This document shows, one piece after another, positions 6,846 through 32,328 of a stretch of DNA of 37,451 nt. The position numbers and the translations under genes are program-made. Origin of the DNA: a bacterium (GTDB lineage Bacteria; Patescibacteriota; Saccharimonadia; Saccharimonadales; SZUA-47); assembly GCA_037138655.1 (NCBI GenBank), contig JBAXHY010000003.1, positions 1-37,451 of the forward strand, given 5' to 3'. The notes under the pieces are model-generated. The model was given only the letters and a program-made list of their open reading frames with translations. It ran no database searches and was not told the DNA's origin. The first letter of the stretch is position 1; the number at the start of each line of letters is the position of its first letter.

Positions 6846-7949
6846 CTATTCTACACGAGCAGACAGTTCTCCGTCAGATAATTGAACTTTAATTAACTGC
6901 TTTGGTTTAGCCTGCTTAATACTTTTAAGCACCTCGCCTTCTAACCTAACTAGTGCATAGCCTCGTTTTAAAATAGCGATTGGATTTAGTATTTCTAGTA
7001 ATCTTTTTTGTGAATTTAAGTTTTCTTTTTGAACTTTTAATGAATTTAGAATTTCGTCATTAATTTGATTGCTTCGGTCTGATATCCATAATTTTGCTTG
7101 TTCTAGTTTTGTTAATAAGCCTTTTTGTAGCCACTGGGATTTGTTTTTAAGTTGTAACGCCAGATCTTTTTTGTCTGGTACTAAAAGTTCCGCCGCATTG
7201 CTTGGCGTACTGGCCCTAGCATCTGCTGCTAGTTCGGCCAAACTTAAGTCTACTTCGTGCCCTATTGCAACCAATGTAGGTATACGACTTGCCGATACAG
7301 CCCTAACGACTTGTTCGTGGCTAAATGCCGCTAGATCGTCTGCACTGCCTCCACCACGTGTAATTACTATTGCATCAACTAGGTCGGCTTGTTCGCTAAA
7401 GTATTTTATTGCCGATATTATATCTGCAGGTGCTTGTTCGCCCTGAACCTGTACGTCATAAACGTTAATTACAATTCCGCCGTATCGGGCGCCGAGTACT
7501 TTTATAAAATCAGCGTATGCAGCAGACTGTAATGATGCAATTAAACCAATAGTCTCAGGGGGATAAGGCAATATTCGTTTTCGTTCAACGTCAAACAATC
7601 CTTCGGCTTGAAGTTTTTTAGCTAACAAATCGGCAGCTTTTTTTATAGTTCCCTCGCCTACTGGCTGAATGCTAGAAACTTGAATACTAAATCCATACAA
7701 ATCATGCAAATGAGGCTTGCCTACCACCGATACGGTCATCCCATCTTCTAGGGGACCAGGAAGTGCATAAATTGTCCCAAAAAATTTTACACTAGCAAAA
7801 TCATCTTTTAGATCAAAATAGACCCATTTACCTCTACTTATTCTAAAATTGGCCAATTCGCCAACTATAGTCACACTTGGGTACGCATAATCTAGAGTCT
7901 GGTTTAACAGCGCTACAAAATCGCTAGGTGAAAGTTCGATACCTTCCAT
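6846..7949 (-). CDS. xseA: Exodeoxyribonuclease VII large subunit
   Basis: YFDLKD, VQVQGE, RGGGS, AIGHEVD, ASTPSNAAE, LKRGYA motifs. Confidence 0.96.
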   Translation of the reverse strand: MEGIELSPSDFVALLNQTLDYAYPSVTIVGELANFRISRGKWVYFDLKDDFASVKFFGTIYALPGPLEDGMTVSVVGKPHLHDLYGFSIQVSSIQPVGEGTIKKAADLLAKKLQAEGLFDVERKRILPYPPETIGLIASLQSAAYADFIKVLGARYGGIVINVYDVQVQGEQAPADIISAIKYFSEQADLVDAIVITRGGGSADDLAAFSHEQVVRAVSASRIPTLVAIGHEVDLSLAELAADARASTPSNAAELLVPDKKDLALQLKNKSQWLQKGLLTKLEQAKLWISDRSNQINDEILNSLKVQKENLNSQKRLLEILNPIAILKRGYALVRLEGEVLKSIKQAKPKQLIKVQLSDGELSARVE

Positions 7950-7952
7950 TTA

Positions 7953-8993
7953 TTATTCCTCTTCTTGGCGCGCGTGCAGTGTTTTGTGGTAAAAATATCC
8001 ACCCAAAGGCAATTGTATAAAAGAATTTAAAATTCGATACATTACAGTTACAGGTAGACTAAGAGCCGCAGGAATACCGGCCGCAACTAAAGTACCTGTC
8101 ATAATTGCTTCGTATATACCGATGCCTCCAGGTAGCACAGATATAAGACCAGCAAAATTACTTACTGCATAAGCAATAATTATTGCACCGACGTTAATAA
8201 ACTGACCAAATGCCATATAAACAGCATAAATCGTTAATACTTCTGTAACATTTGCCAAAAGTGCGTACATTAGTGGCTTTTTAAGCTTTTTTAAATCTTT
8301 TCGTACCAAAGTGTAATTATCGTGGAGTTCGTTGAATGTTTCGTGCACTTTGTCTATTTTTATTGTTTCTGGATGGCTTCGTCTAAAATAAAATATTACT
8401 TTGTTTATTACTCTTGTTATAAAAGCAAAAAAGCTGTTTATACGTCCCCTACTTTCTAGTATATATGCTGCCATAAGTGATCCGACAAATAGTAAAGTAG
8501 ACAAACTTGCTGCTATTAAAATTAAGAAGTTACTGGCTTTTCCGCCGATTGCCAAAACCAGCAGTCCAGAAGCAAGCATTATCTGAAAAGATAAAAATAT
8601 TAATGCAAACTTTATTACTTGAACTAGTGTGGATTTTCCTGTTCCTGCACCTAACGAACGCATTCGTAAACTAAAGTATGAAATACCCGACACCCCACCA
8701 CTAGGAAAAACATTATTTACAAAGTTAAGTTCTAAACAAACTCTGTATAGTTTTTTATATTCAAGATCGTCACCTAATACAGCGTAAATATGCTGATACA
8801 TTTTAGAATATGAATGATAATTTACCACTTGTAGCAGTGGCATAAGTGCAATTGCCCACATGTTAACATTTTTTAAGTTATTAAATGTGTCTACTATTTG
8901 ATGTCGTAACAAATATACAAAAATAAAAAGCGCGACAATAGTAACAGCGCTAAGGATAGATTTGTATGGACTATTTTTGGGTTTACGAGCCAT
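7953..8993 (-). CDS. Lysylphosphatidylglycerol synthase TM / UPF0104 flippase-like membrane protein
   Basis: Multi-TM; FVNNVFPSGG, PGGIGIYE and YR motifs. Confidence 0.85.
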   Translation of the reverse strand: MARKPKNSPYKSILSAVTIVALFIFVYLLRHQIVDTFNNLKNVNMWAIALMPLLQVVNYHSYSKMYQHIYAVLGDDLEYKKLYRVCLELNFVNNVFPSGGVSGISYFSLRMRSLGAGTGKSTLVQVIKFALIFLSFQIMLASGLLVLAIGGKASNFLILIAASLSTLLFVGSLMAAYILESRGRINSFFAFITRVINKVIFYFRRSHPETIKIDKVHETFNELHDNYTLVRKDLKKLKKPLMYALLANVTEVLTIYAVYMAFGQFINVGAIIIAYAVSNFAGLISVLPGGIGIYEAIMTGTLVAAGIPAALSLPVTVMYRILNSFIQLPLGGYFYHKTLHARQEEE

Positions 8994-9013: not shown

Positions 9014-10270
9014 ATGAAAGAATCATTTCCAACAATACTTACGCTTGGTCGACAACCATCTATGGGAATCGCCGAATTAGAGAGCCTTTATGGTGCCGAA
9101 AACGTTAAACCCTACGGTTCACAAGCAGCGTTTTTAAATATAGAATCCAGCAAAGTAGATTTTGCTCGTCTTGGGGGTAGTACTAGGTTATGTAAGGTGC
9201 TTGCTGAGCTTCCTGCGTCATCATGGTCTGCAGCCAGAGATTTTTTGGCTAAAACTATCCCAGATCACGAAAAATATGTCCCCGAGGGCAAATTAACTAT
9301 TGGCGTAAGCGTAATTGGCATTAAAGTAGATACTAAAGACATTGAACGTTGTTTGTTGGGAGCAAAAAAAGCCGTTAAAGCCTTGGGCAGATCGGTGCGA
9401 ATAGTTCCAAATAAAACTGCCGAATTAAATGCGGCACAAGTTATACACAACAACCTTACAGGTTCGAACGGCTGGGAGTTGGTAATTATAAGTAACGGTG
9501 CTACGGCTTTTCTTGCACAAACTGTATCTATTCAGGACATCGAAGGATACGCAGCGCGCGATCAAGCACGGCCCTACCGCGATGCCCGAGTTGGTATGTT
9601 GCCGCCAAAATTAGCTCAAACCATTATTAATCTTGCTGTTAGCAAGATTAATGATCATAGTTCTAGGCAACAGCCGACAACGCTACCAACAGAAGCTACC
9701 CAGAACTTAGAACTCAGAACTCAGAACCTTGTTTTGCTGGATCCGTTTTGTGGTACTGGTGTTTTGTTGCAAGAAGCATCACTTATGGGATTTGACGCTT
9801 ATGGAACAGATTTAGAACCAAGAATGGTTGAATATAGTATTGGAAACATGCACTGGATACGCGAAAAATTTGATGTAGCCGGAGAATCTGTCCGAATCGA
9901 ATTAGGCGATGCAACAGAACATAAATGGCAACAGCCCATAGATTTATTAGCTACCGAAACATATTTAGGTCAGGCCTATGCTAGCCTTCCGCCCCAAGAA
10001 CAATTACAAAAAAATATACGTTACGTCGACAGTTTGCATCGTAAATTTTTGTTTAATTTACAAAAACAAGTTAAAAAAGGTACACGCATTTGTTTGGCCG
10101 TACCTGCATGGTATACCAAAAGTAGCTTTTTACACTTGCCAGTCCTTGACCATTTACAGGAGTTGGGCTATAATAGAGTTAAGTTTGTTCATGTGTCTAA
10201 AGATGATCTGATTTATCACAGAGAAAACCAGATTGTTGGACGTGAACTTGTAGTATTAGTAAAGGATTAG
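9014..10270 (+). CDS. TRM11/UPF0020-family RNA methyltransferase
   Basis: GMLPPKLAQ, LDPFCGTG SAM motif; start at 9014 avoids overlap with the divergent gene. Confidence 0.8.
   Translation: MKESFPTILTLGRQPSMGIAELESLYGAENVKPYGSQAAFLNIESSKVDFARLGGSTRLCKVLAELPASSWSAARDFLAKTIPDHEKYVPEGKLTIGVSVIGIKVDTKDIERCLLGAKKAVKALGRSVRIVPNKTAELNAAQVIHNNLTGSNGWELVIISNGATAFLAQTVSIQDIEGYAARDQARPYRDARVGMLPPKLAQTIINLAVSKINDHSSRQQPTTLPTEATQNLELRTQNLVLLDPFCGTGVLLQEASLMGFDAYGTDLEPRMVEYSIGNMHWIREKFDVAGESVRIELGDATEHKWQQPIDLLATETYLGQAYASLPPQEQLQKNIRYVDSLHRKFLFNLQKQVKKGTRICLAVPAWYTKSSFLHLPVLDHLQELGYNRVKFVHVSKDDLIYHRENQIVGRELVVLVKD
9701..9728 (+). repeat. Intragenic heptamer tandem repeat (YAGAACY)x4
   Basis: cagaact tagaact cagaact cagaacc inside the methyltransferase ORF. 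Confidence 0.8.
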
Positions 10271-10276
10271 GAATAT

Positions 10277-10549
10277 ATGTCACACGTTAAAGCTGGCGGT
10301 ACCGCCAAAAATACCAGAGATAGTGCTGGTAAAAGACTTGGAATCAAACGCAGCGGCGGTCAAAAAGTTACTGTTGGACAGATAATTTTTAGACAAGTTG
10401 GAATGACTAAATTAGCAGGAAAAGGCACAAGCCTTAGCCGTAATTACACCATTCACGCAGCTAAAGACGGAATTGTTACTTTTGTTCAAAGAAGCAAAAA
10501 GACATACACTGGTAAAACAGTTCGTCGCACAGAAGTTCAAGTTATTTAA
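10277..10549 (+). CDS. rpmA: 50S ribosomal protein bL27
   Basis: MSHVKAGGTAKNTRDSAGKRLGIK...IIFRQ; SD-like AGGA upstream. Confidence 0.96.
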   Translation: MSHVKAGGTAKNTRDSAGKRLGIKRSGGQKVTVGQIIFRQVGMTKLAGKGTSLSRNYTIHAAKDGIVTFVQRSKKTYTGKTVRRTEVQVI

Positions 10550-10564
10550 ATCATCTTGATTATT

Positions 10565-10596
10565 AAAAAAACCGCTCTTATACGAGCGGTTTTTTT
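10565..10596 (+). terminator. Intrinsic terminator after rpmA (potentially bidirectional)
   Basis: AAAAAAACCGCTC-TTATAC-GAGCGGTTTTTTT. Confidence 0.9.
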
Positions 10597-10627
10597 GTAT
10601 GCAGTAATATTTTTACGCCTGTAAATT

Positions 10628-10655
10628 AATAATCACCCCTTTTGGAGTGATTATT
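10628..10655 (-). terminator. Probable terminator of the pyrG-receiver transcript
   Basis: Minus strand AATAATCACTCC-AAAA-GGGGTGATTATT followed by AATTT. Confidence 0.65.
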
Positions 10656-10673
10656 TTTAGTTTTAAATAAAAC

Positions 10674-11090
10674 TTAGGCTAGAGGTGTCATGCCGAGGTG
10701 CTGACGTACTTTTTCTACTACGTCGGCAATAACTACCTGTGATTTTACTAAGTAATCGTCTACGTGAAGATCTATTGCTCGTTGCTTGTCAGTGTCTTGG
10801 CTGAGTGCTGTTAGCATAATAACCTTCATGTTTGATGTTTCTGGTGTGTTTCGTAAAATATCTAACACGTCAAAACCACTAACTTTTGGCATCATAACGT
10901 CTAACAAAATAATATCTGGTCTGAATGATAAAGCTGATGATAATGCTTCTTCGCCATTTGGTACACGCTTAACTTCGAAGTCTTCTGCATCAAAACGTGT
11001 AATATATACACTTGCTAACGCGTCGTCGTCTTCTACTAATAAAACTTTTTTGTGCAAACTTGGCGTTGGCTGTATAACTTGTGGATCCAT
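10674..11090 (-). CDS. Single-domain response regulator, canonical
   Basis: LLVEDD, phosphoacceptor in LLDVMMP, LTAL, YLVK. Confidence 0.92.
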   Translation of the reverse strand: MDPQVIQPTPSLHKKVLLVEDDDALASVYITRFDAEDFEVKRVPNGEEALSSALSFRPDIILLDVMMPKVSGFDVLDILRNTPETSNMKVIMLTALSQDTDKQRAIDLHVDDYLVKSQVVIADVVEKVRQHLGMTPLA

Positions 11091-27194: not shown

Positions 27195-27237
27195 TAAATA
27201 ATAAAAGACGCACGTAGCGTGCGTCTTTTATTATTTA
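27195..27237 (-). terminator. Strong intrinsic terminator after heliorhodopsin
   Basis: 20-bp perfect inverted repeat TAAATAATAAAAGACGCACG-tag-CGTGCGTCTTTTATTATTTA. Confidence 0.85.
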
Positions 27238-27252
27238 TTAATCTGTATAAGA

Positions 27253-28200
27253 TTATGGACGAAGAATGCCTGCAAATACTTGCCATGCAAGTACTGACTT
27301 TGCAACCAACGAAAGAATCATGTAGACCTTTTCGCCGTATAAATATTCTGCCCACTTACCTTTTTTAGCGTACTGAAGGTACATATTTACTGCAAAACAG
27401 TTAAAGAACAAGAATATGCTTACAAGTATTGCATAAACAAAACTTGGTGGACCGCCACCTTCGCCGTATTTACCAGAACCAATAATATAAATTGCATATA
27501 CAATCCAAGGAGCGATTCCAGAAATACATCCTACGATATAGCTTGACCAATCAACTTTGCTTTTGCCCTGGTTTACGATTTCCATGACAAGGCCCAAAAG
27601 ATTCATGACTGAAGTTAGTGCAAACATCATTATTAATGATCCTAGGTCAAAAACTCCTGCTAATAGCGCTATTGCAACCATCATTGTGCTGGCGCTAAGA
27701 CTGTATTCGATCCAACGAGCCTTATTGATGCCCTTAGAAAGTCCAGCTTCGTAACGCTTTCGGTACCAAGTTGCAATGCTAACGTGAGCGACTGCTGACA
27801 TTGCAAAAAAGGCTACAATTAACCAAGCAAGGTTAATGTCGAATAGTGAATGACTTGCAGCAACAAGCACTGGACGTTCTGTTGTACTAGCTAGTGAATC
27901 TAATGAAAGATAATTAGTTGTTACTGTTTGCAAGCCCATTCCAGGTTTTGCTAACCAAAGTACAAGCGCTGCTTGAACTGCATGTAATACTGCCATAGAA
28001 ATATTCCAACGGAACAATCTGTCCATTACAGATTTTGCTGCAGTTGGTTTTACTACTGTAGTTTTACTGGCAACTGCTTTTTTAGCAACTGCTGGTTTAA
28101 CAACCTTTTTAGATACTGTTTTTTTAGTTACTTTAGTTGGTGATTTTTTTACTGTTTTGGTCTTTTTAGTTGTCGATGATTTTTTAGTAGTTGTAGCCAT
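27253..28200 (-). CDS. Heliorhodopsin with Lys-rich N-terminal extension
   Basis: 7 TM; LHAVQA (TM1 His), SAVAH (TM2 His), RWIEYSLSAS (counterion Glu), SLVAKSVLAWQ (retinal Lys). Confidence 0.95.
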   Translation of the reverse strand: MATTTKKSSTTKKTKTVKKSPTKVTKKTVSKKVVKPAVAKKAVASKTTVVKPTAAKSVMDRLFRWNISMAVLHAVQAALVLWLAKPGMGLQTVTTNYLSLDSLASTTERPVLVAASHSLFDINLAWLIVAFFAMSAVAHVSIATWYRKRYEAGLSKGINKARWIEYSLSASTMMVAIALLAGVFDLGSLIMMFALTSVMNLLGLVMEIVNQGKSKVDWSSYIVGCISGIAPWIVYAIYIIGSGKYGEGGGPPSFVYAILVSIFLFFNCFAVNMYLQYAKKGKWAEYLYGEKVYMILSLVAKSVLAWQVFAGILRP

Positions 28201-28206
28201 GCAAAT

Positions 28207-28235
28207 AGTTTAACCTTTAGCGCTCATGCATACAA
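28207..28235 (-). promoter_or_regulatory. Candidate heliorhodopsin promoter, likely leaderless
   Basis: TTGTAT-17 nt-TAAACT-6 nt-ATG (28200). Confidence 0.55.
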
Positions 28236-28248
28236 GGTGTGGAATCAA

Positions 28249-28728
28249 CTACATTTGCTTAAACGGTTTATGACAAATTCCACGACCTGTGCGTTCGGCA
28301 AATTTTTGATGATAATCTTCGGCTATATAAAATGTTTTAGCTTCTACTAATTCAGTAATTATTGGTTTATTAAAACTTGATTTTGAGTTAGTAATAACTT
28401 GTTTTGCGACTTCATATTGTTGGTTATCAAAATAAAAAATTGCTGACCTATATTGGTCGCCCGTATCTGGTCCCTGACCACCTATTTGCGTTGGATCATG
28501 CATATACAAAAACTGTTCTACTAAAGTTTTGTAGCTAACTATTGTGTCGTCAAATTCTAGTTGAACTGCTTCTGCATGACCTGTGCTTTTGTAGCAAACG
28601 TCTTCGTAAGTTGGGTCGGTTGTATGACCGCCAATGTAGCCAACCGTAGAATTTGTAACTCCACTAATTTGATCAAAATAAAACTGAACTCCCCAAAAAC
28701 ATCCTGCGGCAAATATAGCTTTAGTCAT
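28249..28728 (-). CDS. msrA: Peptide-methionine (S)-S-oxide reductase
   Basis: GCFWG active site, GHAEAV, HDPT, QYRSAIF, AEDYHQ; no signal peptide. Confidence 0.96.
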   Translation of the reverse strand: MTKAIFAAGCFWGVQFYFDQISGVTNSTVGYIGGHTTDPTYEDVCYKSTGHAEAVQLEFDDTIVSYKTLVEQFLYMHDPTQIGGQGPDTGDQYRSAIFYFDNQQYEVAKQVITNSKSSFNKPIITELVEAKTFYIAEDYHQKFAERTGRGICHKPFKQM

Positions 28729-29317
28729 CTGATTTACTACTTTTATTTGTTTTTAAATTTGTCTGATTTTCTTGCATTTTAGATTTTATAGTTACTAGTT
28801 TAATGTACGAATTACTGTCGTCATTATTATAGAATCCTAAACTTGATTGTTCGTTTTCTGACACTTCGTAATAAATATTTCCGGATACTTTTTGTCCTAC
28901 AGACAAAGGACCTCCACCAAATAAAGGTGCTCCCTTTTGTATAGCTGGTAGGCTTAACGTGTTAGTGTCTGAGCTTACTAATTTAAACTGCATATAAGGC
29001 GACAGCTGAACGACGTGGTCGGAAGTGTTGGCTACGGTTACCGTAAAAGCTACTGTATTGCCGTTATCTATCTTTTTATAATTATCTACCGTTACTGAAT
29101 AATCGTTAGATTTGCTTATTTGTTCACCTAGTACGTTATTTACAGGATTAATTACTGAAGAGGCTATACTGTCAGAAGAAGACTGCTTGACTCTGTAATC
29201 TACGTATCTAGAAAAACTTAATATACCAACAGTAACAGTTGCTACCAAGATACTTAACGAGATTTTTTTGTTTAACATATCTACTTTCTGTATACGTGTA
29301 TTAAGTTTAGTATACAC
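28721..29317 (-). CDS. Membrane-anchored DUF4352-like (Ig-like) protein
   Basis: One TM, then FTVTVANTS...FKLV...LSVGQKVSGNIYYEV pattern; start could be the downstream Met. Confidence 0.65.
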   Translation of the reverse strand: MYTKLNTRIQKVDMLNKKISLSILVATVTVGILSFSRYVDYRVKQSSSDSIASSVINPVNNVLGEQISKSNDYSVTVDNYKKIDNGNTVAFTVTVANTSDHVVQLSPYMQFKLVSSDTNTLSLPAIQKGAPLFGGGPLSVGQKVSGNIYYEVSENEQSSLGFYNNDDSNSYIKLVTIKSKMQENQTNLKTNKSSKSDD

Positions 29318-29369
29318 CTATCTTGCTTAGTTTAAATTATATAACATTATTGATGTATTAACAATATTA

Positions 29370-29912
29370 TTAATTGGTCATGATTTTTTTATCCAGAAGC
29401 TGACAAAGTGCAGTATCTTTTTTACCTACTTCTGCTACATCGTAACACCACGTTAGTACTTCATCTTTAATGGGCACCATATAAGCAAGTTCACCCTTAG
29501 CTGGCACGTTCGGTAGGTATGAACCAGCCTGAAAAGGATCGTTAACAAGGACCATTTCTATACCGTATTTAGCTCCCTTTTTGTCCTTAATATAACTTTG
29601 TAATACAGGCGTTAACCACCACGCTTTGGTGTCGATATTAACTAAACTTACGTTAACACTTATAAATTCATAACCTTCTTTTGGCGGAACCATAGATTTT
29701 TTAACTGGCTCTACCTTCCACGTTAAGGATTCTAGTTTAAGTATGCCAACTTTTTTAGGAAACGATGTTTGTAACGCCATGGTATAGCGACGATATACAA
29801 AAAATGACAATATAATAATTATCGTAGCAAACAACGCGGCTATTAAAGTTACTGTCTTTTTATTAAGGTCTACGTGTTTAGACTTTTTATTGGTAGATTT
29901 TTTAGCTTTCAT
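29370..29912 (-). CDS. Membrane-anchored DUF4352 protein
   Basis: One TM, PKEGYEFISVNVSLVN...IKDKKGAKY...KGELAYMVP. Confidence 0.75.
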   Translation of the reverse strand: MKAKKSTNKKSKHVDLNKKTVTLIAALFATIIIILSFFVYRRYTMALQTSFPKKVGILKLESLTWKVEPVKKSMVPPKEGYEFISVNVSLVNIDTKAWWLTPVLQSYIKDKKGAKYGIEMVLVNDPFQAGSYLPNVPAKGELAYMVPIKDEVLTWCYDVAEVGKKDTALCQLLDKKIMTN

Positions 29913-30847
29913 TAGATTACTGGTCCAACTATATATGTATTAAATATGCTCTTTACGCCACTTTGACCACCGTGTTGTGCAGTAAATGCGCTAGTTGCAT
30001 TACCGCCACATAATGGTGTGATTCGGTTTGATCCGCCGTTATGATTTGCGACTTCGTTTCCGTTACTACCATTTACTCCGGAACCAGAAAGAATAAGGTA
30101 ATTTGAATTATATATAACCCAACAATTTGCAGCAGAATTATGAGTTGCGATTTGAGCAGCAGTACATGCGCCACCTGATGTTCCACAAGCAGATGTAGGT
30201 ACAGCTACGCTAATAGTTACTGTTTTGGTGCCGCTGCTGCCGGCTATGTTTGAACAAGCTAGCGTGTAGCTAGTGGTGCTAGTTAAACTAACAGACTGGC
30301 TTCCGCTTGCTGCCTTTGATCCAGCAAAACTACCACCACCCCCAGTGCACGTAACAGGAAGTGTTGCGTTAGCGCTTGTTATCCATGACAGTACGGTTGA
30401 ACCACCTGACGAAACACTGGTTGGTGAGCCTGTAAAAGTAAGTGTTGGCGCAACTTTTGCAGCACCTGCAGGACTCGATGGTTGTGTTATTGGAATAGTT
30501 GCAGGTTTTGTGGCCGGAGTTGTCGTAGGCGCAGTTGATGTAGTTTGTTGCGCAGTCGTATTAACTGGCTGAGTGGATGTTGAAGTTGAAGTTTGATCTG
30601 CTGGTAGTGTTTTAGTTGAATTATTATTAACAGATTCTGCAGTCGATGAATCGTCTGAATTGGAAATTACAAAGCTACTTATTTTTAAAAGTACGTTTTT
30701 TGGCACTATTAATCCTGCGATTAAAATTAATGTCAAAAATCCTAATGCAATAAATAGCGAAATAGCGACAGATTTTTTAAGAGACATCCTACGGGAACCC
30801 TTAGATGCAAATGTACCTTTTATAATATTTATTGGTGATAAAGACAT
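29912..30847 (-). CDS. Membrane-anchored surface protein: S/T/P stalk, Ig-like domain, C-terminal cytochrome b5-like heme domain
   Basis: QIATHNSAANCWVIY, HNGG (variant of HPGG), CGGNATSAF..QH, YIVG fit the cyt b5 pattern. Confidence 0.78.
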   Translation of the reverse strand: MSLSPINIIKGTFASKGSRRMSLKKSVAISLFIALGFLTLILIAGLIVPKNVLLKISSFVISNSDDSSTAESVNNNSTKTLPADQTSTSTSTQPVNTTAQQTTSTAPTTTPATKPATIPITQPSSPAGAAKVAPTLTFTGSPTSVSSGGSTVLSWITSANATLPVTCTGGGGSFAGSKAASGSQSVSLTSTTSYTLACSNIAGSSGTKTVTISVAVPTSACGTSGGACTAAQIATHNSAANCWVIYNSNYLILSGSGVNGSNGNEVANHNGGSNRITPLCGGNATSAFTAQHGGQSGVKSIFNTYIVGPVI

Positions 30848-30869
30848 ATGATTCCTTTTAATAATATTT

Positions 30870-32252
30870 TCATGTCATTGCAAATTCTTCTGAATGTATC
30901 TTGCTGTTTGGTACACCTAGTTCACGTAGCTGCGATCTTAACGACTTCATCATTGGTGGGGGTCCACATATAAAAATCTCTTTGCCGTCTAATCCACCAC
31001 ACATTTGAGATATTTTATCTGCAGTTAAAAATCCTTCTTGTTCTTTTGCTACATATGGCATGTATCTAAACGAAGGATACTTTTGTGGTAGATATTCTGC
31101 AATTGCTTTTTGATCTAATAATTCAGTCCGATTTACTACGCTATAAACCAAATCTACTGCCCCACTATTGCTATTATAACTTCTGGCCATACTTAGGAAC
31201 GGCGTAACACCAATACCACCAGCAACCCAAATTTGTGGTGCTGTGCCAAAATTTGTATAAGTAAATTTGCCATACGCACCTTCTATTTCTGCAACTGCAC
31301 CAATCTTGATATTTTTTAATCCAATAGTGTAATCACCTAGTGATTTTATATATAGTCTTATGTTATTTTCGTCGGGTGAACTAGCAATAGAAAACGGATG
31401 TGCTTCACGAATAACGCCCTGTTGGCCACTCCACAAAAATCTAATAAAAACAAACTGACCAGGTTTGTAATCTATGGATTTTTCCATTGGTTCCATAGTT
31501 AACGCTACGACGTTGGTTTCTAGCTCTGAAACGCCAATAACTTTATAAGGATATCGTCTGACAAAAACATTACTCATTACAGTACGATAAAAAAATGAAC
31601 ATAAACCAATTATTACCCATAAAAGCATGTAGTATTTTAAAAACGCATCACGTGAAGTATCTGAGCTAATTAAAATTACATGTAATCCTGCAAACATAAA
31701 AGCTACGCCTAAAAACTTATGGGTAAATAACCAAAAACGATACGGTAGTTTTACAAAAAAAGTTAATACCAACAAAACAACCATTCCAAAAAATGCAACT
31801 ATTCCTGCATTAATTGCAGTACCCTGTTCGGCTTCAAAAAAAGTTTTGTTTAAGTCTAGGCTTCTTGGTAGCAAAAATTTTGCTGAATCTTTAATTGAAT
31901 CTAGTGCCTTGATGTCTATATATTTAAGCGCTAAAAATAAAGGATGAAAAACCAAAAGAATAAGTGCTATTCCACCCGTTATATGGTGTGCAATATATAC
32001 CCTATTAAGCCCACCAAAAAAATTCTCCATCCACCGAGTACGTGCAGCTAAAAGTAAATTAATTGCGTATAAAACCAGTCCAATAAGTCCTGTTACTTTA
32101 CCGAACATGTTAAAAAACATTAGCGGACTGTGCAATGAAGATGCGAAGGAATTAATCTGAAACCATCTAACAAACGGTACCGCGCTAAAAATCCAGATGA
32201 GTATCCATCCACCATAATGCTGTAGCCATAATTTATAATCGTTTTCGTTCAT
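30870..32252 (-). CDS. Ferric-reductase / bacterial NOX-type flavocytochrome (TM heme domain + FAD/NAD(P)H domain)
   Basis: His pairs in YIAHH...VFHP and FTHK...GLHV; PGQF, HPFSIAS, AGGIGVTPF, CGP, terminal EEF. Confidence 0.9.
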   Translation of the reverse strand: MNENDYKLWLQHYGGWILIWIFSAVPFVRWFQINSFASSLHSPLMFFNMFGKVTGLIGLVLYAINLLLAARTRWMENFFGGLNRVYIAHHITGGIALILLVFHPLFLALKYIDIKALDSIKDSAKFLLPRSLDLNKTFFEAEQGTAINAGIVAFFGMVVLLVLTFFVKLPYRFWLFTHKFLGVAFMFAGLHVILISSDTSRDAFLKYYMLLWVIIGLCSFFYRTVMSNVFVRRYPYKVIGVSELETNVVALTMEPMEKSIDYKPGQFVFIRFLWSGQQGVIREAHPFSIASSPDENNIRLYIKSLGDYTIGLKNIKIGAVAEIEGAYGKFTYTNFGTAPQIWVAGGIGVTPFLSMARSYNSNSGAVDLVYSVVNRTELLDQKAIAEYLPQKYPSFRYMPYVAKEQEGFLTADKISQMCGGLDGKEIFICGPPPMMKSLRSQLRELGVPNSKIHSEEFAMT

Positions 32253-32328
32253 TTAACCCTTAGAGTACTTATGCTTATTATACTCTACGTTATAACGAAC
32301 CAACTAAATATTTGTTACAGTACAAAGA

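Follow-up and report, generated by a model that had tools for sequence, protein, structure and literature searches.

A conserved operon of NOX flavocytochrome, cytochrome b5 and DUF4352 genes in environmental Saccharibacteria, with a possible role in outward electron transfer

The stretch of DNA analyzed here (37,451 nt, hereafter the window) carries what is, as judged from sequence, an operon of three gene families, conserved among environmental Saccharibacteria: those for a NOX-type flavocytochrome (NOX), a membrane-anchored cytochrome b5 predicted to be extracellular, and one or two beta-sandwich DUF4352 proteins predicted to be membrane-anchored. We consider it probable, although well short of certain, that this operon is a route exporting electrons from NAD(P)H through NOX to b5. 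If so, the route would allow NAD(P)H re-oxidation or metal reduction outside the cell in a fermentative bacterium that lacks an NADH dehydrogenase chain. In these tiny symbiotic bacteria the operon resembles an outward electron wire. A literature search found no earlier description of an operon combining NOX, an extracellular b5, and DUF4352.

In the window the NOX, b5, and two DUF4352 genes are followed by genes for methionine sulfoxide reductase (MsrA) and a heliorhodopsin (HeR), giving six ORFs, all on the minus strand. A first-pass annotation had described six co-directional genes, and the recomputed coordinates gave the same gaps of 22, −1, 52, −8, and 48 nt. Co-direction carries little weight because nearly all of the window's ORFs that reach 100 aa lie on the minus strand. 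The starts of the second DUF4352 gene (GTG) and of b5 are longest-ORF calls; internal ATGs are possible and would make two of the gaps wider. The run is closed by an intrinsic-terminator-like hairpin (27195..27237, minus strand; 20-bp stem, 3-nt loop, and U-rich 3′ arm) beginning 16 nt past the HeR stop codon. This hairpin had been noted at first reading and was borne out by folding (−27.9 kcal/mol, z = −9.9) and by a shuffle test in which none of 200 shuffles equalled it. A promoter scan returned 15 sites versus 20 expected by chance. It gave no site in the 48-nt gap preceding the HeR gene, for which a separate candidate promoter had been proposed. A candidate −10 hexamer, TATAAT (32277..32282, minus strand), was read from the sequence 25 nt ahead of the NOX start codon. 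It does no more than match the consensus and is absent from the scan output, presumably because there is no −35 element at 16–18 nt.

The first core gene (30870..32252, minus strand) encodes the 460-aa NOX, which joins a six-helix ferric-reductase domain at the N-terminus, containing two bis-His heme sites, to an FAD/NAD(P)H dehydrogenase domain at the C-terminus (Pfam Ferric_reduct, 54.2 bits; FAD_binding_8, 48.4 bits; NAD_binding_1, 45.2 bits). Among 62 orthologs H89, H90, H103, H178, H191, HP (285–286), G346-I347-G348 with P351, and CGPP (429–432) are invariant, and F287 is conserved in at least 90%. The four heme histidines are all retained, as are the motifs for FAD and NAD(P)H. The nearest solved relative is SpNOX (PDB 8qt6/8qq7, E 1.6e-45).

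The second core gene (29912..30847, minus strand), assigned by Pfam and synteny, encodes the 311-aa membrane-anchored b5 protein, which runs from a K/R-rich N-terminus through one TM helix, an S/T/P-rich linker, and a beta-rich middle domain to a C-terminal b5 heme domain (residues 212–311; 29915..30214, minus strand). The whole protein scored 22.1 bits against Pfam Cyt-b5, slightly below the cut-off of 23.7 bits, and its C-terminal 100 aa alone scored 26.8 bits, above that value. It is the sole b5-family match in the genome. The heme domain has two putative axial histidines (in HNGG and QHGG) and four conserved cysteines. In an alignment of 99 b5 domains (alignment A3) C31 and C69 are invariant, and C10, C17, H25, W32, H58, and H83 are conserved in at least 90%. 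Just 43 of these domains individually reach Pfam Cyt-b5 at E ≤ 0.01, and the profile made from all 99 matches the bacterial cytochrome b558 1cxy best (E 1e-9). The b5 fold is confirmed by an AF2 model of the domain (pLDDT 89), to which Foldseek matched cytochromes b5 with TM scores of 0.66–0.84 and rmsd of 1.4–1.7 Å. An outside location fits because K/R-rich N-termini precede the single TM helix in the b5 and DUF4352 proteins, and because b5 has conserved cysteines and an S/T/P linker. The first-pass domain calls for all six genes, including a b5 anchored on an S/T/P-rich stalk, were right.

Core genes three and four encode DUF4352 proteins a (29370..29912, minus strand; 180 aa, 27.4 bits) and b (28721..29317, minus strand; 198 aa by longest ORF, 36.0 bits), the genome's only matches to this Pfam family (cut-off 25.9 bits). 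Protein a is predicted to consist of an N-terminal TM helix and an extracellular beta-sandwich. Its AF2 model (pLDDT 81.7) places the helix at residues 16–48 and the beta-sandwich at 58–174, and YcdA, YjhA, and MPT63 are among the Foldseek matches listed. The DUF4352 alignments have no conserved His, Cys, or Met, so nothing in DUF4352 indicates a redox role.

Gene order was compared in 80 NOX-ortholog loci (38–99% identity, species representatives) from Saccharibacteria and other CPR genomes, almost all labelled Saccharibacteria or Saccharimonadales. A b5-domain gene directly follows NOX in 67 of the 80, and b5 plus DUF4352 in 59, counts in which loci of related species are non-independent observations. 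The median gap is 10 nt from NOX to b5, genes that overlap in 29 of 67 loci, and 2.5 nt from b5 to the DUF4352 gene (≤25 nt in 57 of 58). The first gene after b5 is of type a in 55 of 58 loci; type b, which accounts for 18 of 20 second DUF4352 genes, is optional and found in part of the loci only. A second b5 form of ~820 aa, having a long stalk and its own DUF4352, occurs in 34 of the 80. When the 961 ORFs of these loci were clustered, NOX was found in 80 loci, b5 in 67, and DUF4352 in 61; the next most shared family was present in only 8, and no conserved transporter or terminal enzyme adjoins the operon. Around the trio, which stays constant, the surrounding genes vary between loci.

A second, independent survey covered 401 genomes drawn evenly from the class Saccharimonadia. 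Among 37 close-clade NOX genes, 28 have a b5 gene on their own strand no more than 1.5 kb downstream and 2 others have it upstream, and 29 of 33 b5 ORFs of 200–399 aa adjoin NOX. In a second NOX clade a small b5 of ~145 aa comes after NOX in 20 of 46 cases, and 43 of 63 small b5 genes are not adjacent to NOX. No b5 match was present on the same contig for 7 of the 37 close-clade and 26 of the 46 second-clade NOX genes, some of these contigs being short. Of ten loci scored as NOX only, five (Microgenomates-type) have flanking TM-anchored proteins with a domain to which hhalign fitted the b5 profile (85.5%, E 5.7e-6), and a canonical b5 (Pfam 80 bits) lies upstream in one further locus. The idea in the first-pass annotation that NOX sends electrons across the membrane to a heme protein at the surface fits the synteny in both samples (67/80 and 28/37).

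In the electron-export reading, cytoplasmic NAD(P)H would reduce the FAD of the C-terminal NOX domain, and the two NOX b-hemes would carry electrons across the membrane. The outer heme would then pass them to the tethered b5 domain, rather than directly to O2, and in many relatives they would move onward to the second b5 on its ~820-aa stalk of Ig-like repeats. Finally, b5 would reduce an external acceptor, for which Fe(III), another oxidant, and a host-surface component are candidates. The most likely role of the DUF4352 proteins, whose genes each accompany a b5 gene, would be to dock or position b5 at the membrane.

A different use of the same proteins is suggested by the heme supply. Neither ferrochelatase nor ALAD was found in the genome (99.35% complete), in line with the earlier expectation of a lineage without heme synthesis, yet it encodes a heme-copper quinol oxidase besides NOX and b5. 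The short and long stalked b5 proteins could thus be surface heme receptors or a host-heme relay, loosely like the NEAT-domain Isd relay of Gram-positive bacteria, with NOX adjacent either as a main heme consumer or as a reductase of the bound heme iron. The two stalk lengths, each with a beta-sandwich partner, would suit such a role. We regard it as unlikely, given that no fewer than 90% of the 99 b5 domains retain both axial histidines: such ligation marks a stable six-coordinate electron carrier and not a heme-transfer protein. Moreover, no NEAT domain is among the Foldseek matches listed for the DUF4352 model, the operon has no transporter conserved beside it, and b5 is thermodynamically and structurally a classic partner of FNR-type reductases.

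Also unlikely, in our view, is that NOX acts alone, as an O2-reducing (superoxide-forming) oxidase or a direct ferric reductase, with b5 and DUF4352 merely co-transcribed surface proteins. NOX must also function without b5, because three same-genus species retain NOX and have either lost b5 (G002, G004) or kept no more than a b5/DUF chimera (G003): G002 keeps the order NOX-MsrA-HeR-TrmA, and G004 keeps NOX on a contig that stops directly after MsrA. The b5-less loci of the class sample (7/37 and 26/46) point the same way, and SpNOX by itself is described as reducing O2 and, slowly, Fe(III) (PMC11564096). However, the b5 pairing recurs in three sequence-distinct forms: with mid-size or large b5, with the small b5 in the second NOX clade, and with b5-like proteins in the Microgenomates loci. 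Without a functional tie such recurrence would be difficult to account for. The frequent gene overlap and the nature of b5 as a dedicated one-electron carrier likewise argue against NOX acting alone.

The remaining two ORFs encode MsrA (28249..28728, minus strand; 159 aa, PMSR 192.8 bits) and HeR (27253..28200, minus strand; 315 aa, Pfam 291.6 bits). MsrA begins MTKAIFAAGCFWG; it is a cytoplasmic peptide methionine sulfoxide reductase, since it has no signal sequence and the catalytic GCFWG starts already at residue 8. HeR has a ~60-aa Lys-rich N-terminal extension and, in its last helix, SLVAK, a motif named in PMC9166423. The six genes might form one light-controlled redox module, in which HeR would sense light and tune NOX and b5 while MsrA would repair the resulting oxidation. 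No terminator-like hairpin lies between the NOX start and the final hairpin, the scan's two sites there are inside the HeR ORF, and heliorhodopsins have been tied to oxidative-stress genes (PMC8612252, PMC9166423). Within the same genus NOX and HeR also remain neighbours in G002 and in G003, where only a DUF4352-like ORF (a b5/DUF chimera) separates them; the contig of G001, a fourth genome of the genus, stops just beyond MsrA.

A conserved six-gene module was nevertheless rejected. MsrA is present in 6 of the 80 NOX-ortholog loci, in several lineages, and in a contiguous run in 4; HeR is within 6 kb in 3 and contiguous in 2. MsrA and HeR are neighbours in the window's genus rather than parts of the proposed electron route. 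In the class sample HeR lies <3 kb from NOX in 5 of 52 genomes having both (G000; G127 and G159; G136 and G228), which amount to three independent lineages at most, versus ~0.5–1 expected by chance on our own rough estimate; in G033 HeR is 1.5 kb from a NOX-like gene. In family f50 HeR and NOX-b5 converge from opposite strands, which rules out a common transcript. The large genera g49 and g57 lack NOX (0/36 and 0/28) and likewise HeR, and shared habitat or ancestry could thus explain the co-occurrence. The HeR-NOX link is a weak, non-operonic one of about three lineages. As the same-genus genomes, moreover, retain NOX-MsrA-HeR without b5/DUF4352, we give the light-controlled module little credence; what is left of the light control envisaged earlier is at most a lineage-level association.

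An MsrPQ-like repair pathway, with NOX as MsrQ plus its reductase feeding electrons via b5 to an enzyme that repairs oxidized surface proteins, would fit the nearby MsrA and the description of MsrQ as an FRD-family protein whose exposed heme serves a periplasmic partner (PMC11564096), but is highly improbable given the cytoplasmic MsrA, the lack of a molybdoenzyme or other reductase domain in the six ORFs or among conserved neighbours, and the lack of conserved Cys, His, and Met in DUF4352.

Electron export through b5 has partial parallels in several known systems. SpNOX shares with the window's NOX the FRD six-helix di-heme domain and the FAD/NAD(P)H domain without regulatory domains, as well as the four heme histidines and the HPF, GxGxxP, and CGP motifs. 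Its outer heme is reported to be solvent-exposed, the enzyme is reported to reduce cytochrome c directly and to show no clear O2 site, and its authors suspect that the natural acceptor is a protein ("a potential protein acceptor") (PMC11564096). SpNOX was studied there as a stand-alone enzyme, whereas the window's NOX is in an operon with DUF4352 and a predicted extracellular b5. In the Gram-negative MsrPQ (YedYZ) system an FRD-family heme-b membrane protein likewise serves a dedicated protein partner at the outer face (PMC11564096, PMC3591440). MsrQ, however, has no fused dehydrogenase and its partner is a molybdoenzyme, whereas the window's NOX has a fused dehydrogenase and a cytochrome b5 as its putative partner, and Pfam found no molybdoenzyme in the six-ORF locus. 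The add-on domains listed in a survey of the FRD superfamily are Fer2, Rieske, DOMON, and peroxidase; b5 is absent from that list (PMC3591440).

The eukaryotic FRE/FRO ferric reductases resemble the proposed route in passing electrons from NAD(P)H through FAD and heme to an outside acceptor. NADH-cytochrome b5 reductase resembles it in delivering electrons to b5, and FNR-type domains of b5 reductases are among the PDB matches of NOX. In that eukaryotic pair both partners are on the same membrane side, whereas the window's b5 is predicted to lie on the side opposite to NAD(P)H. The best profile match of the b5 domain, the prokaryotic b5 of Ectothiorhodospira vacuolata (cytochrome b558, 1cxy), has the same fold. 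It is soluble, resides in the periplasm and contains a disulfide; the window's b5 adds a TM tether, an S/T/P stalk, an extra beta-rich domain, and a neighbouring NOX gene. A conceptual likeness only is offered by the flavin-based extracellular electron transfer of Listeria (Ndh2/EetAB/PplA), in which a fermenting monoderm passes electrons from NADH outward to a redox protein tethered at its surface. The Listeria system uses a quinone and flavins, whereas the Saccharibacterial route would use FAD and three or four b-hemes, with no quinone.

The six ORFs lie on the minus strand in the order NOX, cytochrome b5, DUF4352a, DUF4352b, MsrA and heliorhodopsin (HeR), running from 32252 down to 27253 and separated by gaps of 22, -1, 52, -8 and 48 nt. 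Their positions, spacing and domain identities (the latter by Pfam) were as given by the first-pass annotation, which had read the six genes as one candidate light/redox module, and the 20-bp-stem hairpin it placed past the HeR gene was recovered at 27195-27237 (-27.9 kcal/mol, z = -9.9). Co-direction of the six genes carries little weight, because nearly every ORF of the 37-kb window is on the minus strand. A promoter scan gave 15 promoter-like matches versus 20 expected by chance. The best match of the region, TTGTTA-17-TATAAT (10/12), lies at 29336-29364 in the DUF4352a/DUF4352b gap and might act as an internal promoter should translation of DUF4352b begin at an internal ATG. Housekeeping functions occupy the flanks (a MacB-type ABC pair, a TrmA-like methyltransferase, RsmE, SerRS, SecA and LysRS). 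In the genome to which the contig belongs (915 kb, 80 contigs, 99.35% complete) the b5 family and DUF4352 are represented only by the b5 gene and the two DUF4352 genes of this module.

In a first comparison, made by tblastn on 20 loci of relatives, NOX-b5-DUF4352 was found again in several genera, and MsrA plus HeR stood beside NOX only in the window's genus. The four other genomes of that genus (G001-G004) differed in content: G001 has NOX-b5-DUF-DUF-MsrA followed by the contig end, G002 has NOX-MsrA-HeR with neither b5 nor DUF4352, G004 has NOX-MsrA with the contig end right behind MsrA, and G003 has NOX, a 209-aa ORF and HeR. The 209-aa ORF (L041:7388-8017) looks like a deletion remnant, since it has a b5-anchor-like start and a DUF4352b-like end; the deletion apparently took out the b5 domain and DUF4352a. 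Same-genus loci lacking b5 carry genes for a 100-aa DUF427 protein and for a protein of 192 aa without Pfam match between FtsX and NOX (L044:3217-4100 and L043:4585-5468), both of which are absent from the window.

The comparison was extended to 80 NOX-ortholog loci from species-representative genomes, in which ORFs were called and searched with locally iterated HMMs. Nearly all of these loci are titled Candidatus Saccharibacteria, Saccharimonadales or Saccharimonas, and one with a 99%-identical NOX is titled 'uncultured Candidatus Saccharimonas sp.'. A b5-domain gene directly followed NOX in 67/80 loci, and at least one DUF4352 gene came after the b5 gene in 59/80. When the 961 non-overlapping ORFs were clustered, NOX was present in 80 loci, b5 in 67 and DUF4352 in 61, with the next family in only 8. 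The genes are tightly packed, with a median NOX to b5 gap of 10 nt and a median b5 to DUF gap of 2.5 nt (57/58 at 25 nt or less), figures that use longest-ORF starts and hence somewhat inflate overlaps. Gene order is also regular: the first DUF gene behind b5 is of type a in 55/58 loci and the second of type b in 18/20. MsrA was contiguous in 4/80 NOX loci and HeR in 2/80, so the idea of a six-gene operon kept in related genomes does not hold; of the proposed light/redox module the NOX-b5-DUF4352 part is conserved, and MsrA and HeR are not regular members. The conserved unit is NOX-b5-DUF4352.

A second, large b5 protein of about 820 aa, which combines repeated beta-rich domains with a C-terminal b5 domain, is encoded in 34/80 loci and is normally trailed by its own DUF4352 gene. 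Many Saccharimonadia have an extended operon of NOX, a short b5 (about 250 aa), one or two DUF4352 genes, the ~820-aa b5 and another DUF4352 gene (L059-L101 and others, e.g., L093:2994-5447 from a Ca. Saccharimonas aalborgensis MAG). The ~820-aa b5 gives sub-threshold PKD/DUF5979 matches. Four loci of the set (L075, L107, L108 and L112) are Saccharibacteria/CPR-type NOX modules filed under Burkholderiaceae, Micrarchaeota and Gammaproteobacteria MAGs and are probably mis-binned.

A set of 401 genomes drawn evenly from the class Saccharimonadia, independent of the 80-locus set, gave a b5-family match in 80/401 genomes and a NOX match (E <= 1e-30) in 115/401, the latter tally including one unpublished genome (G383). 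For NOX genes of the close clade, b5 was found no more than 1.5 kb downstream, on the same strand, in 28/37 cases and upstream in 2/37, and none was on the contig in 7/37. Looked at from the b5 side, 29/33 ORFs of 200-399 aa and 10/14 of at least 400 aa were inside a NOX module. In another NOX clade, more distant and of about 437 aa, a small b5 (about 136-148 aa) follows NOX in 20/46 cases, and the two genes overlap in the loci fetched (L120-L123, from four genomes: G127, G136, G228 and G159). An FNR-like reductase or partial NOX was also seen directly 5' of a small b5 gene in two genomes (G048:C7:91514-92526 and G037:C30:15-1003), a further way in which reductase and b5 are paired in the class.

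Ten of the 80 loci had been scored as having NOX only. Five of these are Microgenomates-type contigs, in which NOX is flanked by TM-anchored proteins with a short N-terminal b5-like domain (hhalign probability 85.5% to the b5 profile, E 5.7e-6). The proteins are encoded at L108:7375-9483, L111:2115-3456, L112:5311-5916 and 7329-8033, L114:4012-5883 and 7358-7996, and L119:7382-8203 and 10185-11051; the b5-like domain is divergent and membrane-proximal and is followed by a long P/T-rich stalk and, in some, a dockerin domain. In one more of the ten, a canonical b5 gene (Pfam 80 bits) lies immediately upstream of NOX. What speaks most for a functional tie is that a NOX paired with a b5-type protein of some sort recurs in three sequence-distinct forms.

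The NOX protein matches Pfam Ferric_reduct (54.2 bits), FAD_binding_8 (48.4 bits) and NAD_binding_1 (45.2 bits). It has the six-helix FRD layout with the histidine pairs expected to ligate two b-hemes, H90/H103 and H178/H191 (TM3, TM5), 13 residues apart within each pair and invariant in both an 11-ortholog and a 62-ortholog comparison. The FNR-type domain has the FAD motif HPF[ST] and the NAD(P)H motifs GxGxxP (here GGIGxTPF) and CGP; residues H285, P286, G346, I347, G348, P351 and CGPP 429-432 are invariant in the 62 orthologs, and F287, G345, T350 and F352 are invariant in the 11 and conserved in at least 90% of the 62. The nearest solved structures are 8qt6/8qq7 (E 1.6e-45), and '8QT6' is named in the accessible text of the paper on SpNOX, the Streptococcus pneumoniae NADPH oxidase (PMC11564096).

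The b5 protein (311 aa) starts with a K/R-rich stretch and a single hydrophobic helix; a linker rich in S/T/P and a middle domain rich in beta structure then lead to the b5 domain. The whole protein scores 22.1 bits with Pfam Cyt-b5 (PF00173), under the cut-off of 23.7, and the last 100 residues alone score 26.8, over it; at E <= 0.01 the Pfam model matches 43/99 related domains. The domain carries the two axial histidines in the arrangement HNGG ... (23) ... QHGG, and these residues (alignment positions H58 and H83) are present in at least 90% of the 99 aligned domains, in which two Cys are invariant and two more Cys plus three His, H58 and H83 among them, are conserved at 90% or above. Searched against the PDB, the b5 profile scores best with the bacterial cytochrome b558 (1cxy, E 1e-9), and in that alignment the first His falls on the HPG of 1cxy. 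An AF2 model (pLDDT 89, pTM 0.80) has the b5 alpha/beta fold and gave 47 PDB matches at E <= 0.001 in Foldseek. Those listed are all b5 proteins or b5 domains of larger enzymes, with TM-scores of 0.63-0.84 (target-normalised) except for full-length sulfite oxidase, and the model agrees with cytochromes b5 at an rmsd of 1.4-1.7 A. The positive-inside rule, the conserved Cys residues and the glyco-linker-like stalk together suggest that the b5 domain is outside the cell. Of the 120 related b5 proteins listed from the database, the majority carry no source name or go by 'hypothetical protein', and for most a precomputed Pfam domain is lacking.

NOX-b5 fusions were sought among longer proteins. 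A single b5 domain as query gave no match; the profile of the 99 domains gave 131 matches, and of the 120 listed, which are b5 proteins of about 200-870 aa, none has a ferric-reductase Pfam domain. The absence of fusions is weak evidence, since only 8000 candidates sharing most words were scored. A predicted complex of the NOX TM domain (residues 1-235), b5 and three hemes scored 0.15, 0.43 and 0.28, with a median below the 0.32 mark; it was run without controls and counts neither way.

Both DUF4352 (PF11611) proteins exceed the cut-off of 25.9 bits, with scores of 27.4 and 36.0. The AF2 model of DUF4352a (pLDDT 81.7) is a TM helix plus a beta-sandwich with a fold that resembles B. subtilis YcdA/YjhA and MPT63 (Foldseek 4r4g at E 1.4e-5, 1lmi and 3cfu). 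No conserved His, Cys or Met was found in the DUF4352 alignments and no NEAT domain was among the Foldseek matches listed, and thus a NEAT-like heme binder or metal site was dropped from consideration. The accessible part of the published DUF4352 work concerns Mpr, a mycobacterial phage-resistance protein, and offers no obvious link to the operon.

The HeR protein matches PF18761 with 291.6 bits over 242/242 profile positions and has the retinal lysine in helix 7 within SLVAK, an SxxxK motif that is one of the common CPR motifs according to the available text of PMC9166423. Its N-terminus (28018-28200) is a Lys/Thr-rich extension of about 60 aa that is predicted to be cytoplasmic. HeR ORFs of one family of the class sample (f1) are mostly 318-352 aa versus about 254-290 aa in most other families, lengths that leave out one f1 match (genome G019) listed without a frame. 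HeR was found in 142/401 genomes, a tally that includes one unpublished genome (G294); G383 and G294 enter into nothing else reported here. It is already on record in the accessible text of PMC9166423 and PMC8612252 that HeRs are common in Saccharimonadia and linked to oxidative stress. HeR is within 3 kb of NOX in five of the 52 genomes that have a listed HeR together with a NOX scoring 280 bits or more. One of the five is the window's genome, and genera g183 and g187 supply two each. What lies near NOX in g183 and g187 is a second HeR paralog; it is encoded on the opposite strand, converges on NOX-b5 and is either adjacent or three genes off. In one further genome (G033) a NOX-like gene is 1.5 kb from HeR. 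We roughly estimate about three independent lineages with HeR-NOX proximity versus less than one expected by chance, relatives not being independent. The proximity is a hint, and no evidence of a shared operon.

MsrA (PF01625, 192.8 bits, profile positions 1-153) has AAGCFWG at residues 7-13 and is cytoplasmic judging by its sequence. Within about ±6 kb of the 80 NOX genes MsrA occurs in 6 loci and HeR in 3, and the MsrA figure suggests a loose 'oxidative stress' neighborhood rather than a component of the module. A partner of the MsrP/YedY molybdoenzyme type is absent from the six ORFs and from the conserved neighbors.

We regard the module as a putative electron exporter of the NOX/FRE type, whose operon also encodes its own extracellular b5 as a dedicated acceptor, along with DUF4352 partners. 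As is established for these families, NAD(P)H binds the cytoplasmic FNR-type domain of NOX, and electrons move from FAD via two stacked b-hemes to the outer face; from there they would go to the short b5 and, where present, the long b5, and finally to an external acceptor; the DUF4352 proteins may be docking or positioning subunits. As b5 domains are one-electron carriers whose potentials are usually above those of NOX hemes, electrons would move downhill from NOX to b5; for b5 to reduce O2 to superoxide would be unfavorable. The mechanism with the best support is electron export to b5, and we think it rather probable.

Against a strict dependence on b5 speaks that NOX persists without it in three species closely related to the window's, all of its genus, and in some of the genomes sampled from the class; NOX must be capable of acting on its own or with a different acceptor. 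Reductive iron uptake was also considered. The genome has one ZIP transporter; Nramp and FTR1 were not found in it, and the FeoB_N matches look like generic GTPases given that the control was positive in all 14 genomes. This picture is suggestive at most, and we gave it no weight. Delivery of electrons from b5 to a heme-copper oxidase was dropped: the cyoABCD-like oxidase operon of this genome (C47:638-4909) looks quinol-type, and by our own reading its subunit II lacks the CuA Cys motif (Cys-x3-Cys).

That oxidase and a type-1 rhodopsin (C70:1459-2106) are encoded in addition to HeR. Ferrochelatase and ALAD were not found in the genome by searches with positive controls, nor was RPE65, and a BCD/Blh search, which gave no match, does not count because its control was silent as well. 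As other heme and retinal proteins are encoded and the synthesis genes were not found, this organism must scavenge cofactors anyway. Cofactor scavenging has previously been proposed for Saccharibacteria rhodopsins, to go by a title cited in PMC9166423.

Returning to electron export to b5, the operon might form a previously unrecognised quinone-free, all-heme-b conduit in environmental Saccharibacteria and probably other CPR bacteria, with b5 as the natural acceptor of bacterial NOX, a proposal that we put forward tentatively and consider rather unlikely. Electrons would go from NAD(P)H through NOX to the short tethered b5 and then to the long b5, which could reach up to about 800 residues outward on Ig-like repeats, with the DUF4352 proteins as docking subunits. 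An epibiont without an electron-transport chain could thereby shed reducing power onto minerals, oxidants or the host-cell surface, and in a few lineages HeR would have been recruited beside the conduit as a light input. To our knowledge, CPR bacteria lack respiratory chains and are unable to make heme. The operon bears on CPR redox balance and hints that ultrasmall monoderm bacteria may transfer electrons out of the cell in a new and simple way, possibly toward the host surface; it also provides DUF4352 with a repeatable genomic partner.

In the portions of the full-text literature available to us, no paper joined cytochrome b5, NADPH oxidase or ferric reductase with Saccharibacteria or CPR, and an earlier mention is possible. 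In the accessible text of PMC9166423 and PMC8612252, 'ferric' and 'methionine sulfoxide' occur 0 times, as do 'cytochrome b5' and 'NADPH oxidase' in that of PMC9166423 and 'MsrA' in that of PMC8612252.

A survey of the FRD superfamily gives Fer2, Rieske, DOMON and peroxidase as partners, b5 not being among those in the part available (PMC3591440). Structures of bacterial NOX enzymes have been solved. SpNOX, according to the accessible text of PMC11564096, has an unusually exposed outer heme, reduces cytochrome c directly under anaerobic conditions and has no convincing O2 site; O2 is perhaps not its physiological acceptor, and a protein acceptor was suggested. The NOX-b5 operon makes b5 a natural candidate for such an acceptor. 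An operon that ties NOX to an exported b5 offers a concrete, testable candidate for a bacterial NOX acceptor and, were the conduit to prove real, the natural protein acceptor long sought for NOX enzymes of bacteria would be cytochrome b5.
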